Shown here: piece by piece, positions 9,127 through 28,218 of the stretch | Layout of the letters: each line of letters begins with the position of its first letter | Numbering within the stretch: position 1 is the stretch's first letter | Assembly: GCA_938021675.1 (NCBI GenBank) | Contig: CALIFY010000010.1 | Coordinates: 8,749-72,748, forward strand | DNA length: 64,000 nucleotides | Direction: 5' to 3' | DNA from: an uncultured Acidimicrobiales bacterium | Lineage (GTDB): Bacteria > Actinomycetota > Acidimicrobiia > Acidimicrobiales > SZUA-35 | The notes under the pieces: model-generated | Told to the model about the DNA's origin: nothing | Databases searched by the model: none | Seen by the model: the letters and a program-made list of their open reading frames with translations, nothing else | Made by a program: the position numbers and the translations under genes

Positions 9127-10408
9127 CCGGGGTTGTAGCAACGGGCTGGCTGCCGGTCTCGGTCTGCATCGGACCGAAACCGGCAGCGTCGGCCACCAAC
9201 TGCCACCATCGCCACACCACGGGCATTCGGAGCGTCCAGCCCAGAAGCGCCCACCCGAGGTGTAGGTGCTCAAGGCCCGCTCCGACCGCGGGCACGCCGG
9301 CGAATTGAACGCCGTCCTCCCGCTCGTAGCGAACTCGGGTCAGCGGGTCGGTGGCGTGGTCCGGGTGGTCTTCGGCCGGCCTGACGGAAAGGTTGGTCGA
9401 ACGTCGAGCCAGAAAGAATCGAGCAACCGGCCAGCAGCTCTGGCAGGAACGCCGTACCCACAACACCGCCGACGAACCTGACTCGGACGGCCGGCCGTGG
9501 GGGAGCCAGCGTCGACGAGTCGATGCGTAGTGGGGCCAAGCCGACCCAAACCGTCGGCCGAGTTCGTCGTGTTCTAGCCGGCAGAAGAGCCAGGAGTACG
9601 CCAGCCCCATCGCCGCTGCCAACAGGAGAGTGGGAAGTTGGTAGACGGCTGCGCCAACGGCCAGCACGGAGATCGCTGAGGTCTGCATCGGGCTCCGCAT
9701 GTAGATCGACGGACCGCTGCGGACAAGGTTTGGCGGTGGATCGAACGGCCACGGTGTACCCCCGGCGAGGAAAAACTCGTGGACGCTGATCAGGCCGGGG
9801 ATGACGCAGAGCCCAATGATGACCGCCACCACACCAAACCCCCAAACCGGCACGGCGGGGCGCAGGGTGGCGCCGACGGCGGCGGCTGAAATCCACGGGA
9901 TCAGCCATGCCAGTAGAACCGAGAATAGAAGGAACTGAAGTCGGGCCCGCCAGGCCAAATTGGTTCGATCGGCGGTCCATCGGGCGAGGAGCAGGCCGGG
10001 CAATGCCACGAATCCCAATAACAACGCCTCACCGAGCAGCCATCGAGGACCAAGCTCGACGATCCCTTCAAGACGTGGCATGGCCAATAGGTCGATCACT
10101 CCGAAGCCGGCGACGGTGGCGGCCGGCGAGGTCCTGAGCAGCGGGCCGACCACGCCCCAGAGCAGTATCCAGCCCAGCATCAACCCGAGCGGTAGTGGCC
10201 CGACCCGGGGCGGAACGTCAGCGAATCGCCACCAGCCGACTTCGACTGCGGCCACGTTCACCACGATGAGCCATACGGTGTTCCAAAGTGTGGCCAGAGC
10301 CACCGCGCCTTGTTCGGTCCGATCCGGGAGGCGCCAGATCCACACCAGCCAAGCCACGACCAGAGGAACGACCGTCACGACCAGACCAGCTGGTTCGATC
10401 TCGGCCAT
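9116..10408 (-). CDS. Polytopic membrane protein fusing a PEMT/ICMT-like methyltransferase core to a C-terminal DCC-type (CxxC) thiol-disulfide oxidoreductase-like domain
   Basis: GGTPWPFDPPPNLVRSGPSIYMRSPMQ matches the isoprenylcysteine/phospholipid methyltransferase motif (GxYxxxRNPMY region). The C-terminus LWVRRSCQSCWPVARFFLARR...WRWWQLVADAAG resembles DUF393/DCC proteins. Start trimmed to ATG 10408 to clear the upstream gene. The 3' end overlaps the convergent OmpA gene by 11 nt. Confidence 0.6.
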   Translation of the reverse strand: MAEIEPAGLVVTVVPLVVAWLVWIWRLPDRTEQGAVALATLWNTVWLIVVNVAAVEVGWWRFADVPPRVGPLPLGLMLGWILLWGVVGPLLRTSPAATVAGFGVIDLLAMPRLEGIVELGPRWLLGEALLLGFVALPGLLLARWTADRTNLAWRARLQFLLFSVLLAWLIPWISAAAVGATLRPAVPVWGFGVVAVIIGLCVIPGLISVHEFFLAGGTPWPFDPPPNLVRSGPSIYMRSPMQTSAISVLAVGAAVYQLPTLLLAAAMGLAYSWLFCRLEHDELGRRFGSAWPHYASTRRRWLPHGRPSESGSSAVLWVRRSCQSCWPVARFFLARRSTNLSVRPAEDHPDHATDPLTRVRYEREDGVQFAGVPAVGAGLEHLHLGWALLGWTLRMPVVWRWWQLVADAAGFGPMQTETGSQPVATTPVSR

Positions 10409-10440
10409 GGTGGGCCCGAAGAGGTCGGTGGTCTGAACGA

Positions 10441-11487
10441 TCACCCACCGACCTCGCACATCTCGGTGGTGCACAGATTCGTTTCGACCATGTCGGCGAG
10501 GACGTGGCTCAGCTCGTCGACCCCCCAGCCTTGCAGCGGCCCGAAGTAGAACCCGGGTGAAAGTGAGCGTTCATACCCGACGCGAACGTCGAGCCTCACC
10601 CCGTGGTCGGTCGGGGTCCACGCCACGGTGGCGTGGTGTAGCTCCATCCAGCGGGCCATCGGTGTCGTGTGTTCAACGACGTCCCACCTCACATGGCGAT
10701 CGGTCCGTTCCGACACTTCGAGCACGATCTCGCCATCGGTGAAATGCACGGTTCGACGATCGCCGATGTCGATTCCGCCGCCGGTCATCGACTGCGGCTT
10801 TGGGAAGGGCAGGCGGAGCAGGAGGGGCTCGATGGTGGGTAGTTCCGTGCCGGTCAGTGCGGCCTCCACCTGCTCGGTGGTTGCGGCCACCGACCGGGTT
10901 TCTTGCCCAACTTCGGCCGGTTGCACTTCGAATGCAGCCCCTTCGGCCGATCCCAGCAATAAGAACAACACGGCGCCGAAGGCGTAGACCGGTCGGCCTT
11001 CGTCACGGCTCTTCTTCGTGGCCCAGATGATAAGACCGATGATCGGAAGGATGAGGGGAAGGGCCAGAAGTACGCAGACAAATCCTTCGCGTAGCAAGAT
11101 GGCGCTTCCCAAAATGGCGACGGTCGTCGCTCGCCAGGTAGCGAATCCGGATGATCTCCCATCGGTTGGGGTGCGGCCGGGGACCAAAGCGATCAGGATG
11201 GCCATCAGGCCAGGAACTCCGATGAAGTAGGCACCGGATTGGCTGAGCCCCGTCTCGCTTAGCGCCCATCCGCCCATACTGCCGACGACCGCAACAGCGA
11301 GGACGCCGGCCACGATCCACTGTGACCGATTGGGTCCGCTTGGGCGAGTCGGCGGCCCATCATCTGCTGGAGCTGGTGCGCTCGACGGGAGGGGATTCTG
11401 TTCCCACGGCACCGGCTGGGGCGCTGGCGTGAATGGTGGCGGTTGGTTTGCCGGTGCCCATTCGTCCGGTTGCTCTGATGGTCCCAT
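10441..11487 (-). CDS. Membrane protein with Pro-rich N-terminus, ~5 TM helices and a C-terminal SRPBCC-like domain
   Basis: 348-aa ORF with high GC3. The C-terminal ~150 aa (RTVHFTDGEIVLEVSERTDRHVRWDVVEHTTPMARWMELHHATVAW...) looks like a START/SRPBCC fold. The function call is tentative. Confidence 0.5.
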   Translation of the reverse strand: MGPSEQPDEWAPANQPPPFTPAPQPVPWEQNPLPSSAPAPADDGPPTRPSGPNRSQWIVAGVLAVAVVGSMGGWALSETGLSQSGAYFIGVPGLMAILIALVPGRTPTDGRSSGFATWRATTVAILGSAILLREGFVCVLLALPLILPIIGLIIWATKKSRDEGRPVYAFGAVLFLLLGSAEGAAFEVQPAEVGQETRSVAATTEQVEAALTGTELPTIEPLLLRLPFPKPQSMTGGGIDIGDRRTVHFTDGEIVLEVSERTDRHVRWDVVEHTTPMARWMELHHATVAWTPTDHGVRLDVRVGYERSLSPGFYFGPLQGWGVDELSHVLADMVETNLCTTEMCEVGG

Positions 11488-11550
11488 ACCGCCTGCTCCT
11501 TACACGCTCAGCCCATCGACCCATGCCTGACCGAGCTAGTTTGATCGTTT

Positions 11551-11564
11551 GCTCAAACTTGAGC
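11551..11564. promoter_or_regulatory. 14-bp palindrome GCTCAAACTTGAGC, followed by a half-site repeat (TGCTCAAA), upstream of the 10441..11487 gene
   Basis: Read directly. It lies 64-77 bp upstream of ATG 11487 in an AT-richer gap. The half-site recurs at 11569-11576. Confidence 0.35.
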
Positions 11565-11647
11565 GTATGCTCAAATAGTCAAACCGTCAAGACAAAGCCG
11601 AAGGCGCACACCGTCGTAGAGATACATGTCGTACCTATCTGTCGTCG

Positions 11648-11736
11648 GTGTATAGAAGCGCGTGTGTATAGATACGCCGTGTATAGATACACGTGTATGG
11701 ATACGCGTAAATAGATACGCCGTGTTCAGATTCGCG
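11648..11736. repeat. Iteron-like array of six head-to-tail 14-17-bp units, consensus GTGTATAGATACGC(C)
   Basis: Units as read: GTGTATAGAAGCGC, GTGTGTATAGATACGCC, GTGTATAGATACAC, GTGTATGGATACGC, GTAAATAGATACGCC, GTGTTCAGATTCGCG. The array is intergenic, between the trmH-like stop (11783) and the start of the next gene (11487). Confidence 0.85.
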
Positions 11737-11782: not shown

Positions 11783-12448
11783 TTAGGCCAACGGGTCTGA
11801 GGAGGCTCCAGGGCCGTGGATGCGAATCCAGGAGTGCATGGCGATACCGGCAGCAACCCCGGCGTTGATGGACCGGGTCGAGCCGAACTGGGGAATCGAT
11901 CGGCATTGGTCAAGGAACGGTCTGATTCGATCGGACAGGCCGGGACCTTCTTGCCCGAACACCAACACGCAGCTCTCTGGTAGTGGCGCTGAGTCGAGCG
12001 GAATCGAGCCTGGCAGATTGTCGATGCCGATGAGTGGGAGCTCGTGTTCCTCGGCCCAGGCGACGAGATCGGCAGGCGTAGGGTGATGGCGGAGGTGCTG
12101 GTAGCGGTCGGTCACCATCGCTCCTCGGCGATTCCACTTGCGGCGACCGATGATATGGACCTCGGCGGCTAGGAAGGCGTTGGCGGTCCGAATCACGGTC
12201 CCGATGTTGAGGTCGTGTTTCCAGTTCTCGATGGCCACGTGAAACCGGTGCCGGCGAAGGTCCAAATCGGCGACGATCGCCTCCACCGACCAGTACCGGT
12301 AACGGTCGATGACGTTGCGTCGGTCCCCGTCGGCCAGCAATGTTCGATCGAATCGGGCATCGTCGGGCCACGGTTCAGGGAATGGCCCAACCCCGACCGG
12401 TGGGTCGATTGGTCCGGGCGTTCGGTTCGGCTCACGGTCGGTCGTCAT
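11783..12448 (-). CDS. TrmH/SpoU-family RNA 2'-O-methyltransferase
   Basis: SpoU motifs NIGTVIRTANAF, LVFGQEGPGLS and IPQFGSTRSINAGVAAGIAMH. ATG 12448 forms an ATGA overlap with the upstream ybaK-like stop. The track start 12541 lies inside that gene. Confidence 0.8.
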   Translation of the reverse strand: MTTDREPNRTPGPIDPPVGVGPFPEPWPDDARFDRTLLADGDRRNVIDRYRYWSVEAIVADLDLRRHRFHVAIENWKHDLNIGTVIRTANAFLAAEVHIIGRRKWNRRGAMVTDRYQHLRHHPTPADLVAWAEEHELPLIGIDNLPGSIPLDSAPLPESCVLVFGQEGPGLSDRIRPFLDQCRSIPQFGSTRSINAGVAAGIAMHSWIRIHGPGASSDPLA

Positions 12449-12987
12449 CGGGTGAAATCGGCGATGACCGCTGCGGTCAGCTGCAACAGCCGCTGGGGCT
12501 CGATGGGGAAGACGTGGCGGGGCGTACCGGCCGCGGCCCACACCTCATCGAAGGTCAAGAGGTGGGGATCGATCCAGGTCCGTAGCTGTTCGGCATGGCC
12601 GAACGGAGGGACACCCCCGATGGCGTAGCCGGTCGACGCCCGGACGGCCTCTGGTGTGGCGCGTCTGCAAGCCGACGCACCGGCGACGTTGGCCAGGGCG
12701 TCGCCATCGACCGTGTTCGAACCCGCCGTCAGCGCCAGCACCAGCTCGGGCTCACCGTCGGCAATGTCTTCGGCAGTGTTTTCGGCAGTGTTTTCGGCAA
12801 TGTCTTCGGGTCGCCCGGCGGCAGTGAAGATCATCGATTTCACGATCTGATCGATCGAGCAGCCGACTGCGGCCGCCGCATCGGCGGCGGTTCTGGCTCC
12901 CTCTTCTGGGTACTCCCGAACCATCAACTCCAGTCCGTGGGATCGTGCGAATGAGCTAACGCGCTCGGCGCTGGGGTGAGTTGACAT
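12445..12987 (-). CDS. YbaK/EbsC-family aminoacyl-tRNA deacylase
   Basis: 180 aa: ...DQIVKSMIF...LVLALTAGSNTVD...GYAIGGVPPFGH...IDPHLL, the YbaK-domain pattern. It carries a 16-aa repeat insertion (see repeat 12760..12807). Confidence 0.8.
   Translation of the reverse strand: MSTHPSAERVSSFARSHGLELMVREYPEEGARTAADAAAAVGCSIDQIVKSMIFTAAGRPEDIAENTAENTAEDIADGEPELVLALTAGSNTVDGDALANVAGASACRRATPEAVRASTGYAIGGVPPFGHAEQLRTWIDPHLLTFDEVWAAAGTPRHVFPIEPQRLLQLTAAVIADFTR
12760..12807. repeat. Four in-frame 12-bp units (A-B-B-A: GGCAATGTCTTC / GGCAGTGTTTTC) encoding EDIAENTAENTAEDIA inside the YbaK-like gene
   Basis: Read directly from the sequence and from the translated ORF. Confidence 0.9.
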
Positions 12988-18071: not shown

Positions 18072-19847
18072 GTGGTCCTTCGGAACGGTGGCAGCCACAC
18101 CTTTGGGTATCGCTCCACGATCAGAGTGTCCGACCGCCACAAGGGTTCTCGTTCAATTAGCACTTCCCGAACCACTCCATCGCCACGCCAGGGCGGCAAC
18201 CCAGGCAAACCGTCTGGTAGTGACCGGTTGACCGTCCTCCGAGACCTGGTGATTCAGGCGGGGCTCGAAGTGCTCGATCAGCACGGGTTGGGCCTCCAGG
18301 CCGATTCGATTACCTACGCCAAGGTGTTTTCGTACTTGGAGGAGGAACACGGCGTTCGTGTCACCCGGGGGTCGGTCCACGATCGGATCTGGCGAAGCCA
18401 GGACGACTTCCGCAAAGAAGTTCTTCTGACGGCGGCCGAGCAGATGTCGCCCTATCGAGACGGTGAGAGCATTCAGCTGGCCATCGTCTCGGTTCTTCAA
18501 TCGATAGACCGCCATGGGCTGGTCGGCCGTGATCGTGTCCAGGCGTTTTGCAGAATGACCGGCGTCACATTGCTCTCGGTCTATCTGGAGGTCGAGTGGT
18601 TTCGACAGTTCCAGATGCTGAAGGCCGCGGCGAGAAGCGACGACGAGTCCACTGCTGCGCTCAAGGAACGGCTCCAGAAGAACTCCCAGGTGAACACCGA
18701 CGACGGCCTGCGCCGCCTCACGTTTTTGTTCGAAGCCCTGGGACTCCGGCCGAGGCCCGAGTTCGGTGAGCGGAGCATCGACGTGTTTATCGTGCTCGTC
18801 CAAGCACTGGTTTCAGGCGTGCACCTCGACCACCACGCCGGGTTCCGCACGGCATCGTCGAAGGTCGAGACCGATCTCCCCTACATGGGCGAGGGTGCTC
18901 CATGGACCTACTTTGGTCTCGGAATGCTTGCCTACGTCGAGTTTCTTTATGAACTCGACCCAAGCTTTGACCCTGCGACCTATGCGTATCCCATTCCCGA
19001 AAAGGCACCCCGGCTGCCAAAGTCGGATCCATTGGATGACCTCGCCGACCTGGTGAATCCTCGTCCGAGGCGAAGCAGAGAAGAGCTCCGGCGGATGGTG
19101 GTTGCCGCCGGGGTCGAGCTGCTCATTCGCGATGGCCTTGGGCTTGAGGCCGAATCGCTGAGCTATTCGACGGTGTTCGCCCACATTAAGAAGACTCGCG
19201 GCATCTCCCTGCACCGCAGCACGGTACATCCAGCCATTTGGGCCTCGCAGGATGAGTTTCGCTCCGACATTCTCGCCGAGTCGGCCCGCCACGACGATGG
19301 CGAGTGGCTGCTGTCGATGAAGCAGGCCATGGCAGCCCAGAAAGTCACCCGCAATTCAGACGGCTCGGTCAATGTCCGTCAGCTCGTGAACGACAACTTG
19401 CGGGCCATGAACGCGGCGCAACTCAGCAACGCGTTGGTATCGCCGGCCTTCAACCGTTGGCAGTCGATCAAAGGCGCGTTGCTTCCCGGTTCGAGCGACG
19501 ATGCCACCGAAGCCGTTCGCCATGCCGTCCGCCAACACTACGAAGGCCTGCTTGAGAGGCTCGGAGAGTTGTACCGCTCGGTCTTGCCGTTGGTCGGCCT
19601 GACCGTCAACCCCGACCTGGCGATGACCGAAGATCATGCCTATCGGGTGCTGTCCGTGCTCTGCGCCGCTCAGGCAACCGGTGTGGAGTTCAACATTTCG
19701 GCAGGAACGCAGATGGAACCCCGCGAAATCTCTCTACCGAGGGTTGACGGCTCGGGTTTGCAAGAGGATTGGAACGTGCAGGCAGTGGGTTCCCGGGCGG
19801 TCCTCGAACTGTTGTTCACGTCGGTTGATGCTCCAGATTCGGACTGA
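18072..19847 (+). CDS. Large (up to 591 aa) protein made of two homologous TetR-like halves (HTH plus helical domain, duplicated in one chain)
   Basis: Internal repeat. Half 1: RLTVLRDLVIQAGLEVLDQHGLGLQADSITYAKVFSYLEEEHGVRVTRGSVHDRIWRSQDDFRKEVL (from ~18222). Half 2: REELRRMVVAAGVELLIRDGLGLEAESLSYSTVFAHIKKTRGISLHRSTVHPAIWASQDEFRSDIL (from ~19074). Both follow the TetR N-terminal helix1-HTH pattern. The start is uncertain (GTG 18072 is the longest option; in-frame GTG/TTG lie downstream). Confidence 0.6.
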   Translation: MVLRNGGSHTFGYRSTIRVSDRHKGSRSISTSRTTPSPRQGGNPGKPSGSDRLTVLRDLVIQAGLEVLDQHGLGLQADSITYAKVFSYLEEEHGVRVTRGSVHDRIWRSQDDFRKEVLLTAAEQMSPYRDGESIQLAIVSVLQSIDRHGLVGRDRVQAFCRMTGVTLLSVYLEVEWFRQFQMLKAAARSDDESTAALKERLQKNSQVNTDDGLRRLTFLFEALGLRPRPEFGERSIDVFIVLVQALVSGVHLDHHAGFRTASSKVETDLPYMGEGAPWTYFGLGMLAYVEFLYELDPSFDPATYAYPIPEKAPRLPKSDPLDDLADLVNPRPRRSREELRRMVVAAGVELLIRDGLGLEAESLSYSTVFAHIKKTRGISLHRSTVHPAIWASQDEFRSDILAESARHDDGEWLLSMKQAMAAQKVTRNSDGSVNVRQLVNDNLRAMNAAQLSNALVSPAFNRWQSIKGALLPGSSDDATEAVRHAVRQHYEGLLERLGELYRSVLPLVGLTVNPDLAMTEDHAYRVLSVLCAAQATGVEFNISAGTQMEPREISLPRVDGSGLQEDWNVQAVGSRAVLELLFTSVDAPDSD

Positions 19848-19899
19848 TTCTTCTGGAGTTGCGTTCAGCTCCGGTCGGAGGCCGGTTGCTGTTGGGTTG

Positions 19900-19983
<84 letters not shown>

Positions 19984-20068
19984 GAGCGACGTCGGCATGA
20001 TACAGCCCCCCGAGCTCGTTGTGTGGTGCCGAACCATAATGGCCCAAGGGCGAGTACCGTATATAGGC

Positions 20069-20731
20069 ATGGTTCTGAAGAGCTTCGAGGACCGCCTTGA
20101 ACGACTTGTGGAAGGCATGTTCTCTCGTGCGTTTAAGAGCGGCCTTCAGCCGGTCGAGGTTGGCCGTCGCCTCGTCAGGGAGATGGAAGCGAGTCGGACC
20201 GTCGACGTGCGAGGTCGTGCGCTCGCTCCGAATCGGTTCGTGATTCGAGTGGCGGTCGAGGACTTCCAACGGTTTGCTCAAGTCCAGGAGTCATTGCTCG
20301 CTGAACTTACGGCCACCGTTCGGGGTTACGCCGCTCAGGAGAGCCTGAGTTTTCTCGGCCGGGTGTCCATCGAGTTCCAGGCTGATCCGTCGCTTCGGGT
20401 CGGCTTGTTCCGGCTCCACCCGTCCTACGACGAACGGATCCCTGAAGCGTCGGCTGACGGTTGGATCGAAGGTCCGAACGGTGTCCGCTACGATCTCAAG
20501 AACAGTGTGATGACCATCGGTCGCCTGTCGACATCAGACATAGTCGTCGACGACCAGAACGTTTCCCGTCAGCACGCCGAGCTTCATCCGCTCGGTGATT
20601 CGTATCAGCTCATCGATCTTGGGTCGACGAATGGGTGCAAGGTAAACGGTCAGCGAATCGACCGGCATGTATTGGTGGATGGAGATGAGATTGCTCTTGG
20701 ACCTGTCACTCTCTACTTTCGACGACCCTAA
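20069..20731 (+). CDS. fhaA: FhaA: DUF3662-type N-terminal domain plus C-terminal FHA domain
   Basis: MVLKSFEDRLERLVEGMFSRAF... N-terminus. FHA core TIGRLSTSDIVVDDQNVSRQHAEL...LIDLGSTNGCKVNGQRI. Conserved position next to the tRNA-Leu. Confidence 0.9.
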   Translation: MVLKSFEDRLERLVEGMFSRAFKSGLQPVEVGRRLVREMEASRTVDVRGRALAPNRFVIRVAVEDFQRFAQVQESLLAELTATVRGYAAQESLSFLGRVSIEFQADPSLRVGLFRLHPSYDERIPEASADGWIEGPNGVRYDLKNSVMTIGRLSTSDIVVDDQNVSRQHAELHPLGDSYQLIDLGSTNGCKVNGQRIDRHVLVDGDEIALGPVTLYFRRP

Positions 20732-20784
20732 CCGAGGGTTCGAAACTACTTCCCTTGAAGGGAAAAAGGGTTGGCCTGTCAATG

Positions 20785-21285
20785 GTGGGCCCACCTTCTG
20801 TAGTCTGCGGTCCAGTGTCTGACGCGCTCCTCACCCTTTTGAAGTGGTGCCTTCTCGGTTTGGTGTACCTGTTCTTCTTTCGAGTGCTCCAGGCGACGTG
20901 GTTCGGATCGACGACTAACGTGGCGGTACGGCGGGTAAACGGATCGCGCCGCCAGAGGCGCAAGTCGGAGCCTCGCCAGGTTACGAGCCACATACCGGAG
21001 GCATTAAGTCTGGTCGTTCTGGAGCCACCGGCGGATGCCGGACGACAATTCCCAGTGAACGGAGAGTTGACGATTGGCCGCGCCGCCGGTTGTCAGATCA
21101 GCCTCGATGACACCTATATGTCGCAGCTGCATGCCCGGGTTTCGTCAACCGAACAAGGCGTGGTAATCGAGGATCTGGGATCGACGAACGGTACATATCT
21201 CAATCGTCAACGGGTTACCGCCCCGGTGGTTGGGGCTCCCGGCGACCGATTGCAGCTCGGCGGCATCGTTATGGAGCTCCGATGA
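20785..21285 (+). CDS. fhaB: FhaB/FipA: small membrane-anchored FHA-domain protein
   Basis: TM helix LLKWCLLGLVYLFFFRVL. FHA core TIGRAAGCQISLDDTYMSQLHARV...IEDLGSTNGTYLNRQRV. The start is ambiguous (TTG 20755, ATG 20785, GTG 20815). The stop overlaps the pstP start (ATGA). Confidence 0.8.
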   Translation: MGPPSVVCGPVSDALLTLLKWCLLGLVYLFFFRVLQATWFGSTTNVAVRRVNGSRRQRRKSEPRQVTSHIPEALSLVVLEPPADAGRQFPVNGELTIGRAAGCQISLDDTYMSQLHARVSSTEQGVVIEDLGSTNGTYLNRQRVTAPVVGAPGDRLQLGGIVMELR

Positions 21286-22889
21286 AACTCCTCGGCGCCA
21301 CGGCATCCCACGTCGGCAACCTCCGCGACACCAACCAGGACCGAGCCTTCTTCCGTGGATGCACCGCAGCCCTGGCCGACGGCATGGGTGGCCATCAGGG
21401 CGGCGAGCGGGCGGCCGAGCTGGCGATAGACGAATTCGATAATTCGAAGGAGCATTTGTCCGAGGACGACCTCGTCCAGTTGGTGGTCGATGCAAATCGC
21501 CATGTCCACGGTCATGCGGTCGACAACGGGCTGCCGGGAATGGGCACAACGCTGGTGGCGCTCACGCTCCACGGAGACGACACGATCACCATCGCCAACG
21601 TCGGCGACAGCAGAGCGTATTGGTTGCGTGGCGAATACATGAGTCAGATCACGCAAGACCACAGCTTTGTTGAGGATCTGGTCCGCCAGGGCAAGCTCAC
21701 ATCGGAAGAGGCGGCGGTTCATCCTCAGCGTAATATCTTGACCCGCGCCGTCGGCATCGGGGCTGAGATCGAGGTCGATAGATTCACCGTCGAAGAGCCG
21801 ATGATCGGCGACCGATTCCTGCTTTGCAGCGACGGATTGTTCAACGAGGTATCCGAAGAAGACATCCGGCTGATCCTGGTCGACACCGAGGGCTGCCACG
21901 TCACCGCGGCTGCCTTGATCGACGCCGCGCTCGACACCCCCTGTCGTGACAATGTCACGGTTACCGTCGTCGATGTGGTCGGCAACGACCACCCGTTGGT
22001 AGCTGACCTCGACGATCCGCTGGAAGCCGATGTCGACACCGTCGACACGCTCGAGACGGTCGACCCCGATCGCACCCGGACAGCCCAAGTGCCGATGGTG
22101 CCCACCCCGGCAACTGGGGTTGGCGATGGTGCCGTCGCCAGCCATCAGGTCACCGCTCTGGCGGCGGCCGATACCACCGAGGTGTACGAGACCCCGCCGG
22201 CGGTGAAGGTCTCCCCGCCAGAACAGCAGCCGGTGGTGACCGACACGTTGGTTCTCGACCAGCGAGCTCTCGATCCCGATCAGGTTCCGTCAATTCTCGA
22301 AGATGAACGGCACGAGGAGGAGTACCTCGATTTCGATCCGGTCTATCCGGAGGAGACCGCCGAACATGAGGTCATCGAAAGCCCAGGCCAAGTTCGCACC
22401 CGGGGACCGATCGCTGCGGTGCTGGTTGGCGGACTGGTTGCGGTAGCGCTGCTGGCCGGTGGGTATGTCGCCGCCCGGTGGTACGCCCAGACCGGGTACT
22501 TCATCGACGACGAAGACGAACAGCTCGTCATCTTCCAAGGTCGACGAGGCGGCTTCCTGTGGTTCGAGCCGGTCGATGTCGGTCGGTTCGATGTGCCGCT
22601 CGATGAACTGAGCGCTGCCGAGGTCGCAGCGATAGAGCAATCCAGCTTCGATTCACGCCAAGAGGCCGAGGGGCTCGTCGAAACGTTGCGTCAATCGGCG
22701 ACCGACGGCGAGACAGCGAACGAGGCCGACTCGGTCGGTAGTGGCGAGGGCAGGCAGGTAAACAGAGATGCCCCATCGGCAACTACCTCGGATGGGGCCG
22801 ACGCCACCGGCGCGGTCGATGGCATCGTCAGCAACGAAGAGGCGGACGACGTAGGTACCAGGGGCTCCACCGAGGCGACTGAGGGCTGA
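21282..22889 (+). CDS. pstP: PP2C-family Ser/Thr phosphatase with C-terminal TM helix and extracytoplasmic domain
   Basis: SHVGNLRDTNQDRAF, LADGMGGHQGGERAA, NVGDSRAY and LLCSDGL motifs. TM helix IAAVLVGGLVAVALLAGGYVAA. Confidence 0.9.
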   Translation: MKLLGATASHVGNLRDTNQDRAFFRGCTAALADGMGGHQGGERAAELAIDEFDNSKEHLSEDDLVQLVVDANRHVHGHAVDNGLPGMGTTLVALTLHGDDTITIANVGDSRAYWLRGEYMSQITQDHSFVEDLVRQGKLTSEEAAVHPQRNILTRAVGIGAEIEVDRFTVEEPMIGDRFLLCSDGLFNEVSEEDIRLILVDTEGCHVTAAALIDAALDTPCRDNVTVTVVDVVGNDHPLVADLDDPLEADVDTVDTLETVDPDRTRTAQVPMVPTPATGVGDGAVASHQVTALAAADTTEVYETPPAVKVSPPEQQPVVTDTLVLDQRALDPDQVPSILEDERHEEEYLDFDPVYPEETAEHEVIESPGQVRTRGPIAAVLVGGLVAVALLAGGYVAARWYAQTGYFIDDEDEQLVIFQGRRGGFLWFEPVDVGRFDVPLDELSAAEVAAIEQSSFDSRQEAEGLVETLRQSATDGETANEADSVGSGEGRQVNRDAPSATTSDGADATGAVDGIVSNEEADDVGTRGSTEATEG

Positions 22890-22891
22890 CC

Positions 22892-24274
22892 ATGCGAGCT
22901 CGAACGGTGGAGCTTGGGTTGTTGGTCTTGGCCACCCTCATCACCTGTGTCGGTTATGGCATGGTGCTGTTGGCCAAACAATCGGCCGACGCCGCCAGCG
23001 ATGTGCAAAACACCTTCCAGACCGAGGTCGGGGGGTTCATGGGGATCGTCGTTGGGCTGTTACTGGCTGCTCACGTGGTCGTCCGGATGTTCGCCCCTCT
23101 GGCCGATGGGCTATTGCTTCCAGTGGCGGCACTGCTCAACGGGCTCGGGTATGTGATGATCGCCCGCCTCGATGAAGGGCTGGCCGCCAAACAAACCGGC
23201 TGGACGTTCATCGGGCTCGGTGCGTTCAGCGCGGTACTGCTGCTGTTGCGCGAGCCGAAGAAGCTGCAGCCATACCGCTACACGTTCGCCGTCATCGGCG
23301 TCGGCCTCTTACTCCTTCCGCTCGTTCCCGGGATCGGGGTCAGGATAAACGGTGCCCAAATTTGGTTGCGCCTCGGGCCCTTTTCTATCCAGCCAGGCGA
23401 GTTCGCCAAGATCGTGTTGGCGGTGTTCCTCGCCGGCTACCTGGCCGACAAACGCGAACTGTTGACGCTGACCAATCGTCGACTTGGTCCGATTCACCTA
23501 CCGGACCTCCGGCATTTCGGGCCGATGCTGTTGGCCTGGGGTATGGCCTTGATGGTAATGATCGCCCAGCGGGATCTTGGCTCGTCGCTGTTGTTGTTCA
23601 CGTTGTTCGTCGTCATGTTCTACGTCGCGACGTCGAAAACGGCCTACGTGCTGACCGGGCTGGTGATGTTCATGGCCGGCGCCGTCACGTCGTGGCGTCT
23701 GTTTTCTCACGTCCAGACTCGAGTAGACATTTGGATCGATCCGTTTGCCGACCCGAAAGGGGCTGGTTTCCAAATCGCCGAAGCAAGCTTCGCGTTGGCC
23801 GACGGCGGTCTCACCGGCACCGGGCTTGGCCAGGGCACGCCGAAGAAAATTCCGTTCGCTCCGACCGACATGATCTTCGCCGCGTTTGGCGAAGAGATGG
23901 GTCTCTTGGGGGCCACCGCCATCTTGGTGACGTTCCTGTTCTTTGTCGGCGCCGGTTTTCGGGTCGCCACCAACGCCCGTTCGCCGTTCGAACAGCTGTT
24001 GGCCGTTGGGTTGACGTCTCTGCTCGGGTTCCAAGCGTTCATAATTATCGGCGGAATCCTGCGGGTATTGCCGTTGACCGGTGTGACCTTGCCCTTCGTG
24101 TCCTACGGAGGATCGTCGCTCATATCCAACTACATCATCTTGGCCATCCTCGTCCGCATCTCGCATAACTCTGTCAATCAGGCAGCCGAGGAATTGGAGG
24201 AGATCAACAGCGAGGCTGGCGAGGTCGGTGTGAGTTCGAAGACTCGGGCCAAGTGGAAGGCTGTGTCGGCATGA
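22892..24274 (+). CDS. rodA: SEDS-family peptidoglycan glycosyltransferase (RodA/FtsW)
   Basis: 460 aa with about 10 TM helices and FtsW/RodA motifs (IQPGEFAKI..., PFAPTDMIFAAFGEEMGLLG, TLPFVSYGGSS). Conserved position. Confidence 0.9.
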   Translation: MRARTVELGLLVLATLITCVGYGMVLLAKQSADAASDVQNTFQTEVGGFMGIVVGLLLAAHVVVRMFAPLADGLLLPVAALLNGLGYVMIARLDEGLAAKQTGWTFIGLGAFSAVLLLLREPKKLQPYRYTFAVIGVGLLLLPLVPGIGVRINGAQIWLRLGPFSIQPGEFAKIVLAVFLAGYLADKRELLTLTNRRLGPIHLPDLRHFGPMLLAWGMALMVMIAQRDLGSSLLLFTLFVVMFYVATSKTAYVLTGLVMFMAGAVTSWRLFSHVQTRVDIWIDPFADPKGAGFQIAEASFALADGGLTGTGLGQGTPKKIPFAPTDMIFAAFGEEMGLLGATAILVTFLFFVGAGFRVATNARSPFEQLLAVGLTSLLGFQAFIIIGGILRVLPLTGVTLPFVSYGGSSLISNYIILAILVRISHNSVNQAAEELEEINSEAGEVGVSSKTRAKWKAVSA

Positions 24275-24329: not shown

Positions 24330-25841
24330 ATGAACCGCCCGATCCGCAAGGTGGTGATGGTTCTACTCGGGTGTTTCGTGCTGCTGTTCGTGCAACTCAA
24401 CCGAATTCAGTTCTACGGGGCGACAGCCCTCGAGGACCAACCGGCCAATTCTCGAACCATTCAGCGTGATTTCGATCGGCCCCGAGGCCGGATCCTGACC
24501 AGCGATGACGTGGTGGTGGCCGAGTCGACACCGACTCCAGGTGGGTTCTTCGAGGAGCAGCGGGCCTACCCCCACAACAACCTGTATGCCCACACCGTTG
24601 GGTACACGTCGTTCACCTTTGGTGCCGAAGGCGTCGAGCGGGAGTACAACGACGCACTGATCGGGCGGACGGCGGGCCAGGAGTTGTCTGGTTTGACCGA
24701 CATCTTGAGCGGTCGCAATCCGGTGGGCGACGTTCGCTTGACCCTCCGCCACGATATGCAGACGCTTGCCCGTGACGGTCTCGGCGATCGGGCTGGCGCG
24801 GTGGTGGCGCTCAACCCGGTGAACGGCGACATCTACGCCATGTGGAGCTTCCCCTCGTTCGACCCCAACTTGATAGCGGTCAACGATGGGAGCGTTGCCA
24901 ACGAGCAGTGGACGGCCCTGGTGAACGCCGAGGGCAACCCGTTACGGGCAAAGACCTATCGGGACATTTTCTTCCCCGGATCGACCTTCAAGCTGGTAAC
25001 CGCGGCCGCGGCATTGGAAAACGATGTGTTGTCGCCGACCGACCCGGAGTTCGAAGCGGTCGAAAGCTACGTGCCGCCGCTCACGGAGCGGCCGATCACC
25101 AACTTCGGTGGCGCCACGTGTGGAGGAAATCTCATCGAGCTGCTCGTCGTATCGTGCAACACCGCATTCGCCCAGGTGGCGGCCGAGCAGCTTGGGCCCG
25201 GTCCGACCGTCGAAGCAGCGGAGCGGTTTGGATTCAACCAGGTACCTCCGATCGATCTGCCGGCATCGGTAGAAAGTATCTTTCCCACCGATTTTGGATC
25301 AGCGGTAGAAAATCCCGATGGGTTCCCGGCCGGAGTTTTTGAGAACACGCCCGCCTTGGCCCAGACGGCGATCGGTCAGAACGACGTGTCGGCCTCGCCG
25401 CTACAGATGGCACTGGTAGCGGCGGCGGTGGCCAACGGAGGCCAGGTACCGACACCGCATGTGTTGCAACAGATCGAGGATTCCGAAACCAGAGATGTGA
25501 CGAGCACCTACCAGCCGAGCGTGTGGTTGCGGGCGATGGCGCCCGACACCGCCGCTCAACTGACCGACGCAATGATTCAGGTAGTTGAGCGAGGCACGGC
25601 CCAGAATATGGCCATCGATGGCCTGATCGTTGGGGCAAAGACCGGCACAGCCCAGCTTGGAACCGACCCGCCTCGGTCACACGCCTGGATCGTGGCCTTC
25701 GGCGGCCGTGCGAGCGAGCCGGCCGAGTTGGCGGTTGCGGTACTGGTGGAGGGCCAGGAGGGCTCGTCGGAGCAAACCGGTGGGCGGGTAGCGGCGCCTA
25801 TTGCGCGCTCGCTGTTCGAGCAGTTCTTTAGCTCGCAGTGA
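24330..25841 (+). CDS. pbpA: Class B penicillin-binding protein (transpeptidase)
   Basis: N-terminal TM helix. Active-site motifs STFK (PGSTFKLVTAAAAL), SCN and KTG (GAKTGTAQ). Confidence 0.9.
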   Translation: MNRPIRKVVMVLLGCFVLLFVQLNRIQFYGATALEDQPANSRTIQRDFDRPRGRILTSDDVVVAESTPTPGGFFEEQRAYPHNNLYAHTVGYTSFTFGAEGVEREYNDALIGRTAGQELSGLTDILSGRNPVGDVRLTLRHDMQTLARDGLGDRAGAVVALNPVNGDIYAMWSFPSFDPNLIAVNDGSVANEQWTALVNAEGNPLRAKTYRDIFFPGSTFKLVTAAAALENDVLSPTDPEFEAVESYVPPLTERPITNFGGATCGGNLIELLVVSCNTAFAQVAAEQLGPGPTVEAAERFGFNQVPPIDLPASVESIFPTDFGSAVENPDGFPAGVFENTPALAQTAIGQNDVSASPLQMALVAAAVANGGQVPTPHVLQQIEDSETRDVTSTYQPSVWLRAMAPDTAAQLTDAMIQVVERGTAQNMAIDGLIVGAKTGTAQLGTDPPRSHAWIVAFGGRASEPAELAVAVLVEGQEGSSEQTGGRVAAPIARSLFEQFFSSQ

Positions 25842-25970
25842 TTCCAACGAGGCGAATCCAACCCAGTGAAACTCAACGAAGTGAAACTCAACGAAGCGAA
25901 ACTCGACGAAGCGAAACTCAACGAAGTGAATCCCAACGAAGTGAAACTCACCGCAGCGAACTTAAGGTAG
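25838..25970. repeat. Tandem array of nine 14-15-bp units, consensus G(T/C)GAAACTCAACGAA, filling the pbpA-pknB gap
   Basis: Units as read: GTGATTCCAACGAG, GCGAATCCAACCCA, GTGAAACTCAACGAA x2, GCGAAACTCGACGAA, GCGAAACTCAACGAA, GTGAATCCCAACGAA, GTGAAACTCACCGCA, GCGAACTTAAGGTAG. The array is markedly AT-richer than its flanks. Confidence 0.9.
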
Positions 25971-26068
25971 CGGCCCCTATGTTTACTCAGTCTTGCAGCA
26001 AGAATTTTGGTGAAATCACCTACGCCGCCGCTTGGGCCACCACAACAAGTAGCATTAGAGGGTTGTGA
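25838..26068 (+). CDS. Possible 76-codon repeat ORF (SETQR)n, stop/start-coupled to both pbpA and pknB; coding status uncertain
   Basis: GTG 25838 overlaps the pbpA TGA (GTGA). TGA 26066-26068 overlaps the pknB GTG 26065 (GTGA). The frame is open across the entire repeat. Against coding: its A/T-rich third positions are atypical for this genome. Confidence 0.25.
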   Translation: MIPTRRIQPSETQRSETQRSETRRSETQRSESQRSETHRSELKVAAPMFTQSCSKNFGEITYAAAWATTTSSIRGL

Positions 26069-28218
26069 CGAACACCTCGGCTGCGCGGCCCATTCTCAAC
26101 GGGCGCTACGAGCTGCATCGACGCATTGCGCGAGGCGGCATGGCTGACGTGTTCCTGGCCAAGGATCAGCTACTCGACCGGCCGGTGGCGGTCAAGGTCC
26201 TGTTTCCGCAGTACGCGGCCGAACCCACGTTTGTTGCCCGTTTTCGCCGTGAGGCCCAGGCGGCGGCCAATCTCAATCATCCGAGCATCGTGTCGGTCTA
26301 CGATTGGGGCGAGCATGACGACACCTACTTCATCGTCATGGAGTACATCGAGGGCCGCACCCTCGCTGAGCTGATCGCCTCCGAGGGGCACCTTCAGCCG
26401 TTGAGAGCAGCCGAGATCGCAACCGACGTTGCGGCCGCCCTTGGCTTCGCTCACCGAAACGGCACCGTGCACCGCGATGTGAAGCCCGGCAACATCATGA
26501 TTACCCAGTCCGGCCAGGTGAAGGTAGCGGACTTCGGCATCGCCCGGGCTTTTGGAGGCTCGGACGACGAGCTCACCCAAACCGGCTCGGTTATGGGCAC
26601 GGCCAGCTACTTCTCTCCGGAGCAAGCTCAAGGAAAGCCGGTCGATCCCCGCAGCGATCTGTACTCGCTCGGCGTCGTGTTGTTCGAAATGGTGGCCGGC
26701 GAGCCTCCGTTCTCAGGAAACTCACCGGTAGCGATCGCCTACAAGCACGTGCAATCGCCTGCGCCGAGGGCGACATCAAAAAACCCGGCAGTTCCGGCGC
26801 CGCTCGATGCCATCATCGAGCGGTTGCTTCGCAAGGAGCCATCGGAGCGTTACCCGGCGGCCGAGGAAGTGCGAGCGGATTTGCGCCGCTTCCGGGAAGG
26901 GCAGCCCCTCGTCGGTGTTGGCCCGCAACAGCCGATGGCCGATCCGACGGCCATGGCCGCCGCTGCTACCGTTGCCAACAATGGCGCCGCTGGCCCGGCG
27001 TATGAACAACCGGCGGGGCCCGACGCCACTATGGCTATGCCCACCGGTCCGGCCATGGCCGCTATGCCGACCCGGGCCCAGGACACCGGCACGTCACGGG
27101 CCATCATCGACACCTCGAGGGCGGTTCCGGCTTCGGCGGCTGCCCGTCGAGAAGACCCGGTGGAGGAGTACTACGAAGCCCCGAGTCGGACCGGCGTGTT
27201 CGTCATCATGCTGGCCGTCTTACTCGTCGCCCTCGTCGGATTGATTATCTACATCTCGAACTCGATCGAGCCCGGTGGAGGGGACGATCAGGTCGAGGCC
27301 ACCGAGACGGTGCTGGTTCCCACGGTGGTCAACGAAGAGGTGGCCTCAGCCGAGAACAAACTGCGCGATGCTGGTTTCGTGCCCGAACGGGTACTGGTCG
27401 ACGTTGCCGACGTTGCTCCGAATCTCGTCGTGTCCCAGAATCCTGAAGGCCAGCAAGAGGCTGAGCCTGGCTCGACGGTGACGATCGAGGTGAGCAGGGC
27501 CCAGGAGACCGAACAGGTTCCCGCCCTTGCTGGTCAGACGCTTGAGGTAGCGCAGGACATGCTCGACCAGCTCGGTCTCACCAACGACATCCGCCGTGAG
27601 GCAAACGAGTCAACGCCCGAGGGCGTCATTATCGGCACCGAGCCAGGCGAAGGGGCCGAGGTCAACAAAGGGGACCAGATTGTCTTGATCGTTTCGCTCG
27701 GTCCGGATCAGATCAGCGTTCCAGACCTGGCGGGAAGCGATCGCCCAACGGCCACTGCCGTGTTGAACGAAGCCGGTTTCTCCAACATCAGCTTTGTGGA
27801 GGAGGCGACGGGGCAGGTGCAGCAGGGCTCGGTCATTCGCACCGAACCGGCCGCTGGTCAACAAGAATCGATCGAGAACGTCATCACCGTGTTCGTGTCG
27901 AGCGGTCCGAGCCAGGTTCAGGTGCCACAACTCCAAGGGCTGGCCCAAGAGGCCGCCATCGCCGCACTTGAGGGCGTCGAACTAGAGCCGGTGTTCGAAG
28001 AGTTCCCGTTGCAGCCCGGCGACCCCAACATCGGGCTGGTCATAGACAGCAACCCGACCGCCGGTAACCAGGTGTTACAAGGGCAGCAGATCCGAGTATT
28101 CGTTGGTGTCGAGTCGACTGACGCGACGTCAACGACCAAACCCGGCGATGGCGACGGTGACGGTGACGGTGACGGTACGACGACGGTTGTACCGACCACA
28201 CCTCCCCCCGACAACTAG
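26065..28218 (+). CDS. pknB: Transmembrane Ser/Thr protein kinase with four extracellular PASTA domains
   Basis: Kinase motifs GRYELHRRIARGGMADVF, VAVKVL, HRDVKPGNIM, DFGIA and SPEQ. TM helix VFVIMLAVLLVALVGLIIYI. I count four PASTA-like repeats. The C-terminal tail is (GD)5-T-rich. Confidence 0.95.
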   Translation: MTNTSAARPILNGRYELHRRIARGGMADVFLAKDQLLDRPVAVKVLFPQYAAEPTFVARFRREAQAAANLNHPSIVSVYDWGEHDDTYFIVMEYIEGRTLAELIASEGHLQPLRAAEIATDVAAALGFAHRNGTVHRDVKPGNIMITQSGQVKVADFGIARAFGGSDDELTQTGSVMGTASYFSPEQAQGKPVDPRSDLYSLGVVLFEMVAGEPPFSGNSPVAIAYKHVQSPAPRATSKNPAVPAPLDAIIERLLRKEPSERYPAAEEVRADLRRFREGQPLVGVGPQQPMADPTAMAAAATVANNGAAGPAYEQPAGPDATMAMPTGPAMAAMPTRAQDTGTSRAIIDTSRAVPASAAARREDPVEEYYEAPSRTGVFVIMLAVLLVALVGLIIYISNSIEPGGGDDQVEATETVLVPTVVNEEVASAENKLRDAGFVPERVLVDVADVAPNLVVSQNPEGQQEAEPGSTVTIEVSRAQETEQVPALAGQTLEVAQDMLDQLGLTNDIRREANESTPEGVIIGTEPGEGAEVNKGDQIVLIVSLGPDQISVPDLAGSDRPTATAVLNEAGFSNISFVEEATGQVQQGSVIRTEPAAGQQESIENVITVFVSSGPSQVQVPQLQGLAQEAAIAALEGVELEPVFEEFPLQPGDPNIGLVIDSNPTAGNQVLQGQQIRVFVGVESTDATSTTKPGDGDGDGDGDGTTTVVPTTPPPDN
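28144..28176. repeat. Coding hexanucleotide repeat (GGYGAY)n encoding GDGDGDGDGDG at the PknB C-terminus
   Basis: Read directly. Confidence 0.85.

Follow-up and report, generated by a model that had tools for sequence, protein, structure and literature searches.

MIRUs are intercistronic elements that occur dispersed in Mycobacterium and have a repeat unit of roughly 40–100 bp. They lie in operon-like clusters, and their reading frame overlaps the downstream start codon by 4 nt as GTGA, a recognised coupling geometry that these elements are thought to use (review PMC12548453). Bacterial intergenic minisatellites and VNTRs, on the other hand, consist of short head-to-tail units in the spacer between co-oriented genes, and copy-number polymorphism is the defining property of a VNTR. 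At the protein level, pentapeptide repeats are represented in Pfam by the families Pentapeptide (PF00805) and GETHR (PF05671). The locus considered here shows likeness to each of these. It is an array of 15-bp units between pbpA and pknB in a 64-kb stretch of DNA from an uncultured Acidimicrobiales bacterium, referred to below as the window. Its central copies are nearly identical, its edge copies are degenerate and it is absent from relatives, as would suit a minisatellite; with regard to the term VNTR, however, the array is known from one genome, and the nearest relative by PbpA is only 76% identical. We interpret the array as an ordinary lineage-specific non-coding minisatellite and the SETQR frame that runs across it as a by-product, a reading to which we assign a probability of about 0.78. 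The features of the locus are as follows:

24330..25841, + strand: pbpA, 503 aa, class B penicillin-binding protein (Pfam Transpeptidase 6e-49, PBP_dimer_2 4e-18)
25837..25864, + strand: leading units, both degenerate: AGTGATTCCAACGAG of 15 nt and GCGAATCCAACCC of 13 nt; read by eye
25838..26068, + strand: SETQR open frame, 76 codons, GTG...TGA, across the spacer; regarded as a by-product and not as a gene
25865..25954, + strand: array core, six head-to-tail 15-bp units with the consensus AGTGAAACTCAACGA (TRF; direct-repeat family D1, 15-bp spacing)
25955..25969, + strand: degenerate trailing unit AGCGAACTTAAGGTA, read by eye
25966..25980, + strand: 15-nt copy of pbpA 25787-25801, GGTAGCGGC[G/C]CCTAT (G-V-A-A-P codons; direct-repeat family D2)
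25981..26010, + strand: AT-rich filler, which resembles neither pbpA ends nor the L082 insert significantly (L082 being the closest relative)
26011..26064, + strand: conserved core, AAATC-N8-GCCGCC-N2-TTGG-N12-AGTAnCAT-N9/10-GTGAC, which aligns in nine of nine genomes
26065..28218, + strand: pknB, 717 aa, PASTA Ser/Thr kinase (Pfam Pkinase 2e-52, four PASTA stretches)

The repeat array and its surroundings

The spacer between the pbpA stop (TGA, 25839–25841) and the pknB start (GTG, 26065) measures 223 nt, which reproduces the coordinates of a preliminary description of this DNA. Its GC content dips to 0.47–0.53 compared with about 0.63 in the surroundings, in agreement with the AT-richness that had been pointed out there. 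At a 15-bp period, TRF returned 5.7 copies at 25865–25950 with 88% matches and a score of 137, and looser rows with periods of 30 and 45 bp stretched the array to 25844–25960, the 45-bp row beginning at 25844. The scores ranged from 137 to 150 across the rows, and the head-to-tail arrangement of copies of one unit is that of a minisatellite. Nine units had been counted previously, which is generous but defensible: six are good (25865–25954), and the remaining three are degenerate (25837–25851, which holds the pbpA stop; 25852–25864, with 13 nt; 25955–25969). The 3' end of pbpA can be aligned to its orthologues right to the stop codon, and this stop falls within the degenerate unit 0, which in a manual alignment agrees with unit 6 (AGTGAATCCCAACGA) in 13 of 15 positions if one gap is allowed. 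No second copy of the 15-bp unit was found within the 64-kb window, where other matches (2–3 mismatches) are at chance level, and the sole metagenome-contig match sits inside an unrelated pentapeptide-repeat/Mrr gene. Over the 64 kb covered, this speaks against an interspersed repeat family, the unit being confined to a single locus in the window and the metagenome match being attributable to chance.

The array is followed by a stretch at 25966–25980 that matches pbpA 25787–25801 at 14 of 15 positions; the hand-estimated chance of such a match within a 500-bp region is about 0.025. The similarity to pbpA 3' ends amounts to z = 3.4 for this stretch alone and to z = 0.18 for the next 33 nt, and a decayed pbpA 3' end after the array was rejected, since the first 15 nt alone are significantly similar and the rest is not. 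Simple slippage does not account for a copy that is so sharply bounded, and it may mark an older, larger duplication.

The unit count, or the join across the array, could have been made by the metagenome assembler, which we consider extremely improbable. Two Logan unitigs (run ERR9287622) match both flanks of the array exactly, and the match takes in at least two units at the left end and two and a half at the right; one unitig carries pbpA and the other pknB, as a true junction predicts. In addition, single reads would be expected to span an array of about 105–130 nt. Against this stands the observation that these independent unitigs break within the array from both sides, L081 stopping after the first two well-conserved units and L085 starting at window position 25928, and that the copy number over about 25881–25927, i.e., the middle three units, is taken from the MAG assembly alone.

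The pbpA–pknB junction in related genomes

In the preliminary description, the array was said to occupy the slot of pknA. However, a tblastn search with the kinase domain placed one PASTA kinase directly after pbpA in 19 of 19 Acidimicrobiia loci as well as in the window, so that there is no pknA slot in this lineage and the framing is wrong for it. Two kinases after pbpA were present only in the Micrococcus, Glutamicibacter, Nocardioides and Nocardiopsis loci and in a few unclassified actinobacterial MAGs, and the supporting statement that Streptomyces has pknA at this position is contradicted by the three Streptomyces loci with a kinase match, which show one kinase each. A pknA remnant was rejected as well, since the spacer product has no kinase match in Pfam and pknA is missing from the Acidimicrobiia relatives examined.

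The eight closest relatives, whose PbpA is 68–76% and whose PknB kinase domain is 84–93% identical, have pbpA–pknB spacers of 51, 51, 51, 51, 61, 62, 62 and 141 nt, none of which contains an array, and the window is the only one among 20 Acidimicrobiia junctions with a multi-copy array. When the junction was aligned with these relatives, neither the array nor the SETQR frame was present in any of them. Instead, about 170 nt are inserted in the window upstream of a conserved pknB-proximal core, which is left intact. This core of ~52 nt just upstream of pknB is common to the window and the eight closest relatives, wherever pbpA stops, and the pknB start GTGAC is invariant in nine of nine genomes, including those without the SETQR frame; in most relatives, the pknB GTG has no Shine-Dalgarno-like sequence upstream. 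The stretch 26011–26064 may be a promoter, an operator or an initiation region of pknB. A promoter scan gave no sigma-70-type match in the core or the spacer, and a sigma-70 promoter or terminator in the spacer was rejected, the one weak terminator-like hairpin being located inside pbpA and at chance level. A structured RNA or riboswitch was likewise rejected, as the fold of the spacer is not above that of shuffled sequences (z = +0.73), the spacer has no match in Rfam at E up to 1, and the core yields no consensus RNA structure (−1.07 kcal/mol).

These results also bear on a possible role of the array in cis, in which the direct repeats would bind a DNA-binding protein that modulates the transcription of pknB from the conserved core. 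The identical units are regularly spaced, and the array starts upstream of both pknB, at about 100 nt, and the core, at about 40 nt, as this would suggest. However, the array is conserved in no relative, units spaced at 15 bp are out of step with the helical repeat, the scan gave no sigma-70-like promoter, and there is no parS-like site, GTGAAAC being just mildly enriched, all of which makes such a role very unlikely. The specific case of an array of parS half-sites (GTGAAAC) was dropped, because the window contains no parS-like site even at three mismatches.

With regard to the origin of the 15-bp unit, a matrix derived from the units and scanned over the junctions of the relatives gave weak, scattered matches, none of them consistent, and a derivation from the relatives' stop context or pknB start context was rejected on this basis. 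The closest relative, L082, has an insert of 90 nt, but common ancestry of the two inserts was also rejected, the local alignment score of 13 being no higher than the shuffle mean of 13.4. A likeness is found in another clade of the Acidimicrobiales, in which tandem duplications include the pbpA stop: L011 has a 20-nt unit in two copies and one degenerate copy, L015 has a 17-nt unit in 1.9 copies, and L009 has a single copy. The junction is the same, and the repeat unit includes the pbpA stop here as there, which means that the protein ends in the first copy and that the later copies are relics. The difference lies in the extent, with two to three copies of 17–20 nt in that clade as opposed to six to nine copies of 15 nt in the window, where further, unexplained sequence is present as well. 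The stop-codon tandem duplications in the clade of L011 and L015 arose independently, and small duplications are thus a recurrent event at the pbpA–pknB junction, which is in favour of the minisatellite reading.

The SETQR frame

The 76-codon open frame reported previously exists and has the translation that was given for it. It overlaps both neighbours by GTGA, at 25838–25841 and at 26065–26068, and the preceding in-frame stop is TAG 25829–25831. The small "gene" read in this way across the array is probably a by-product. Its upstream GTG at 25838 results from CAG-TGA at the pbpA stop and has no Shine-Dalgarno sequence ahead of it, and the downstream GTGA is, according to the nine-genome alignment, part of the conserved pknB start and not specific to the ORF. 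The bridging frame with both overlaps is not conserved, being absent from six of the eight relatives, in which the equivalent frame is stopped 3–10 codons upstream of pknB; the open frame of the other two is an out-of-frame stretch that reaches deep into pbpA. In a Monte Carlo simulation that left the ends and the array unchanged but shuffled the flanks, 18% of trials gave a bridging ORF, or 6% if the spacer length modulo 3 was randomised, and because its chance probability is only 6–18% the bridging frame is mildly unexpected.

The codon usage of the frame differs from that of real genes, the reference being 291 windows, each 76 codons long, that were taken from eight genes with Pfam support. 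GC3 is 0.39 in the SETQR frame and 0.20 in its array portion as opposed to at least 0.59 in all reference windows (median 0.74), which bears out the A/T-rich third positions that had been raised against coding, and the codon log-likelihood of −0.19 per codon is below the reference minimum of −0.09. The product had no match among 5.8 billion proteins and 13 weak matches among 1.84 billion representatives. The five retrieved of these are low-complexity proteins, e.g. (SETQK)n, (SETKR)n and (AETQR)n, and are unrelated to it. Moreover, the PbpA of the source genome is on record, but a called gene for the SETQR product is not. A real protein with homologues was therefore rejected, as two very large protein searches gave no true homologue and the gene is uncalled. 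An antisense ORF at 25577–25951, which overlaps pbpA in antisense and has a codon score of −0.15, was rejected too.

The SETQR frame matches GETHR at 30.7 bits, above the cut-off, and the pbpA frame (VKLNE/AKLNE) reaches 20.1 bits against Pentapeptide, for which the cut-off is 20.2. Two frames of the array thus score against these models, but the scores reflect five-residue periodicity only, with no independent gene, homologue or conservation; homology to GETHR beyond this periodicity was not found in the protein searches, which gave nothing or unrelated low-complexity repeats. The matches of two frames to two different pentapeptide-repeat families are a periodicity artefact. The VKLNE stretch, closed by TAG 25968–25970, comprises just 42 codons past the pbpA stop and has no counterpart in relatives. 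Its codon score of +0.45 per codon, which is better than that of SETQR, is based on effectively five codons. Both a pentapeptide-repeat relic and a read-through of PbpA in this frame were rejected, since the PbpA proteins of the relatives end there, unextended.

It had also been proposed that (SETQR)n is a substrate of PknB or a scaffold for FHA domains. A newborn small protein of this kind would present five to six Thr-Gln phospho-acceptor sites and would be a substrate or decoy of PknB, or else a protein on which the FHA proteins from the upstream genes dock. The ORF does exist, FhaA, FhaB, PstP and PknB are all encoded in one cluster, and PknA and PknB have been reported to prefer Gln after the target Thr. 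However, the lack of a true homologue and of a called gene, the absence of the frame from all relatives, and a GC3 and a codon score that fall outside the range of real genes speak against the proposal, which is not supported. In addition, the repeat peptide follows automatically from the 15-bp periodicity, and the VKLNE frame is equally protein-like. We regard such a protein as highly improbable. In a fuller scenario, the ~170-nt insertion would have created a newborn translated ORF coupled at both ends, turning the uncoupled pbpA–pknB into a coupled pair, and (SETQR)n, produced in parallel with PknB, would be a multi-site Thr-Gln substrate or an FHA-binding decoy; we give it hardly any credence.

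The alternative offered in the preliminary description was a MIRU-like VNTR that couples pknB to pbpA. The array is indeed an intercistronic tandem repeat with an open frame that overlaps both neighbours, the downstream start by the same 4 nt as in MIRUs and, in addition to these, the upstream stop. However, it is not a MIRU: its unit of 15 bp is much shorter than that of MIRUs, which measures tens of bp, the 64-kb window has it at a single locus whereas MIRUs are dispersed, it is found in Acidimicrobiia instead of Mycobacterium and is absent from every relative, it gives no sign of mobility, and its downstream overlap is a conserved feature of pknB that was not brought by the repeat. Coupling as such could nevertheless take place if 25838–26068 were translated by termination-reinitiation at the pbpA GTGA and its ribosomes passed on at the second GTGA to pknB; in that case the peptide would be functionless, and the open frame would have made the 170-nt insertion tolerable. 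The −4 geometry at both overlaps, the low frequency of bridging frames in the simulations and the missing Shine-Dalgarno-like sequence before the pknB GTG of most relatives are consistent with this, and a like logic has been proposed for MIRUs (review PMC12548453). However, the relatives are uncoupled, with spacers of 51–141 nt and in-frame stops, and coupling is therefore no ancestral requirement. Since the intact core could act alone, GTG 25838 has no Shine-Dalgarno sequence and the reading is a post hoc one of a single genome, we consider ribosome delivery unlikely.

Proposed origin and significance

According to the reading as a non-coding minisatellite, about 170 nt would have been added between the pbpA stop and the conserved ~52-nt core. 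Copies of the 15-bp unit would make up the bulk of the added DNA, and their head-to-tail amplification was probably due to replication slippage or unequal exchange. Since unit 0 holds the stop codon of pbpA, the sequence at this stop was probably the starting point. The unit corresponds to five codons, and any frame in which it has no stop is consequently open across the whole array; two of the three frames are open in this manner. One of them would by chance join the GTG of CAG-TGA to the TGA of the conserved GTGAC and thereby look doubly coupled. The expression of pknB most likely relies, as in the relatives, on the core that was spared by the insertion, and the array itself would be without a dedicated function.

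The array is of little importance in itself, being one more intergenic tandem repeat from a single uncultured genome, and it may serve as a typing marker for the lineage if it varies between strains. It does, however, call for caution in two respects: any 15-bp array yields pentapeptide-repeat "proteins" in up to three frames, which are able to pass Pfam thresholds, and GTGA overlaps at both ends of a frame can come from the flanking genes' own sequence. A by-product of the comparison is that the Acidimicrobiia loci examined are without pknA at this position and share the ~52-nt element directly upstream of pknB, which is more suitable than the repeat as a target for studies on the expression of the essential kinase PknB.

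The repeat array and its origin

The plus strand of the window carries an actinobacterial-type cell-division and signalling cluster, in which the array lies between pbpA and pknB.

Features of the cluster and of the array
19899-19983, minus: tRNA-Leu
19997-20731, plus: fhaA, FhaA_N and FHA domains
20755-21285, plus: fhaB, FHA domain
21282-22889, plus: pstP, PP2C phosphatase
22892-24274, plus: rodA, FtsW/RodA family
24330-25841, plus: pbpA, transpeptidase domain, stop TGA 25839-25841
25837-25851: degenerate unit 0, includes the pbpA stop
25852-25864: degenerate unit before the good units
25955-25969: degenerate unit after the good units
26065-28218, plus: pknB, kinase domain and four PASTA stretches, start GTG 26065
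minus strand: trpG-like amidotransferase, convergent with the cluster

Upstream of fhaA, a 591-aa ORF without Pfam match (18072-19847, plus) stops about 50 nt short of tRNA-Leu, and a 452-aa ORF (9116-10474, minus) likewise has no Pfam match.

The pbpA stop and the pknB start are separated by 223 nt, with a GC content of 0.47-0.53 as opposed to about 0.63 in the surroundings. Tandem Repeats Finder (TRF) places a periodicity of 15 bp at 25865-25950 (5.7 copies, 88% matches, score 137), which its looser rows stretch to 25844-25960, and direct reading gives six good units at 25865-25954 with the consensus AGTGAAACTCAACGA. No further copies of the unit were found elsewhere in the 64-kb window. An open frame of 76 codons runs from GTG 25838 to TGA 26066-26068; array and frame are confirmed as previously described, and the translation given in the preliminary description matches the computed reading. 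In an independent assembly of run ERR9287622, two unitigs match both flanks exactly and both break within the array. This shows the junction to be real, while the count of central units is taken from the MAG assembly; there is only a slight chance that an assembly artefact underlies the array.

We consider the array to be a non-coding, lineage-specific minisatellite without dedicated function (probability roughly 0.78), which behaves like a VNTR locus. Unit 0 holds the working pbpA stop codon, and units 2, 3, 6 and 7 have a TGA at the matching position within the unit; the array would thus have grown in place by slippage, starting from the sequence at the pbpA stop. In an Acidimicrobiales clade other than that of the window, one of the loci fetched for comparison (L011, 5436-5490) has a 20-nt unit twice, with a degenerate third copy, including the pbpA TAG stop just before pknB; another (L015, 5437-5469) has 1.9 copies of a 17-nt unit that also includes the pbpA TAG stop, and a third (L009) has the corresponding segment in single copy. 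These stop-including duplications of the final 17-20 nt of pbpA arose independently in that clade, and these cases suggest that the pbpA-pknB junction has repeatedly been struck by small slippage events. A matrix derived from the units gave just weak, scattered matches in the relatives. Immediately after the array, 25966-25980 is a copy (14/15) of pbpA 25787-25801, which is significantly pbpA-like (z = 3.4, as opposed to 0.18 for the next 33 nt). It may have been left by a larger duplication or have arisen by chance, the probability of finding a match of this kind in 500 bp being about 0.025 by rough estimate.

Further tandem repeats were observed in the window: an intergenic AT-rich array at 11648-11736 (units of about 14-15 nt, GTGTATAGATACGC, 5-6 copies) between the minus-strand genes at 10441-11487 and 11783-12541 (SpoU methylase), an 18-nt TRF repeat just upstream of it (11541-11575, TTGAGCGTATGCTCAAAC, 1.9 copies), and two more arrays at 50955-51069 (36 bp, 3.2 copies, 97% identity) and 49207-49319 (24 bp, 4.8 copies, 73%).

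Coding potential and other readings of the spacer

The preliminary description had also considered a real (SETQR)n protein. No gene with a SETQR product is on record, and no homologue was found among 5.8 billion proteins. An HMMER scan of 1.84 billion representatives gave 13 weak matches, down to E = 1.7e-9. Five of the matched proteins were retrieved; they are unrelated and match through composition, in runs such as SETQK, SETKR, NETKR or AETQR. GC3 is 0.39 in the ORF and 0.20 inside the array, compared with at least 0.59 (median 0.74) in each of 291 reference windows, 76 codons long, taken from eight neighbouring genes with Pfam support. The codon usage of the ORF has a log-likelihood of -0.19 per codon, the minimum for real genes being -0.09. 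The SETQR frame does match the Pfam GETHR repeat (30.7 bits). The array is, however, open in two frames, and the pbpA frame, which reads VKLNE/AKLNE for 42 codons past the stop, is superior in codon statistics and scores at the borderline for Pfam Pentapeptide (20.1 bits, cut-off 20.2); two repeat-protein families result from two frames because five-codon periodicity alone produces such matches. A functional (SETQR)n product is very unlikely.

A metagenome-contig scan with the unit dimer gave one match, read as chance since 15-nt periodic matches are expected in pentapeptide-repeat genes. It lies in locus L086 (1722-3242), in an unrelated gene for a 506-aa protein that joins many pentapeptide repeats to a restriction endonuclease domain of the Mrr type. 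An antisense ORF (25577-25951) was rejected because it overlaps pbpA and scores poorly. No RNA structure beyond that of shuffles (z = +0.73) was detected in the spacer, and Rfam yielded no match, whether with gathering thresholds or with E relaxed to 1. The parS palindrome has GTGAAAC as one half; no parS-like site was found in the window, even at three mismatches, and we give little weight to the units being protein-binding sites.

The junction in relatives

None of the eight closest relatives has the array or anything comparable by TRF. Their spacers measure 51 nt (L001, L003, L004, L005), 61-62 nt (L002, L083, L084) and 141 nt (L082, the closest relative, at 93% identity in the PknB kinase domain); similarity between the insert of the window and the 90-nt insert of L082 is not significant. 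All nine genomes share a core of about 52 nt immediately 5' of pknB, wherever pbpA ends, with the consensus AAATC-N8-GCCGCC-N2-TTGG-N12-AGTAnCAT-N9/10-GTGAC, although the PbpA proteins of the eight relatives share no more than 68-76% identity with that of the window. The pbpA stop TAA forms the first three bases of the core in four relatives and lies 10 to 90 nt from it in the others. In the window the core is intact at 26011-26064, about 170 nt from the pbpA stop, so the array occupies a variable zone and leaves the conserved element untouched. In the core an invariant AGTAnCnT, which includes a TANNNT hexamer, precedes the GTG by 9-10 nt, and a TTG lies another 12 nt upstream; no consensus RNA structure (-1.07 kcal/mol) and, in a simple scan, no sigma-70-type match were found in it. 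The core may serve pknB of this clade as its promoter, its operator or an initiation region.

The main rival to the minisatellite reading is that the frame is passively translated as a ribosome-delivery ORF. Its geometry agrees with that proposed for MIRUs (review PMC12548453), but the relatives are uncoupled and the conserved core is intact, which makes this explanation improbable, if the best of the alternatives. Nine of nine genomes begin pknB with GTGAC, so the terminal TGA of the ORF is a property of pknB, and GTG 25838 consists of the G of CAG and the TG of the pbpA stop. In six of the eight relatives a stop closes the corresponding frame 3-10 codons before pknB; in the other two the frame extends over a long stretch within pbpA, out of frame with that gene. 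With both ends and the array fixed and the flanks shuffled, a bridging ORF arose in 18% of Monte Carlo trials; randomising the spacer length modulo 3 lowered this to 6%. Such an ORF is mildly unusual, below significance. Of the MIRU features in the proposed VNTR that keeps the genes coupled, only the overlap geometry stands, and the array is not a MIRU: the unit is of another size, and no dispersal was seen in the 64 kb.

Kinase genes after pbpA

The best PbpA relatives are Acidimicrobiales MAGs (68-76% identity), followed by other Acidimicrobiia (44-51%); the source PbpA itself is on record, the closest other protein being 76% identical. When the kinase domain and PASTA region of the window were searched against every fetched locus, exactly one kinase-domain match followed pbpA in the window and in 19 of 19 Acidimicrobiia loci (L001-L015, L034, L082-L084), with PASTA similarity behind it in most of those with enough flank. 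This lineage therefore lacks a pknA slot in which the repeat could sit, and the placement of the array in such a slot is refuted. Among the loci fetched, tandem pknA-pknB occurs only in Micrococcus, Glutamicibacter, Nocardioides, Nocardiopsis and a few unclassified actinobacterial MAGs; Tessaracoccus, Propionibacteriaceae and Coriobacteriia loci have a single kinase. The same holds for the three Streptomyces loci in which a kinase match was obtained, and the background claim that pknA holds this position, made for Streptomyces among others, was too broad. Across Actinomycetota (L020-L057 compared), pknA 5' of pknB is patchily distributed. Two by-products of the analysis are more useful than the array itself: that pknA is missing from this locus in the examined Acidimicrobiia, and the conserved pknB-proximal core.
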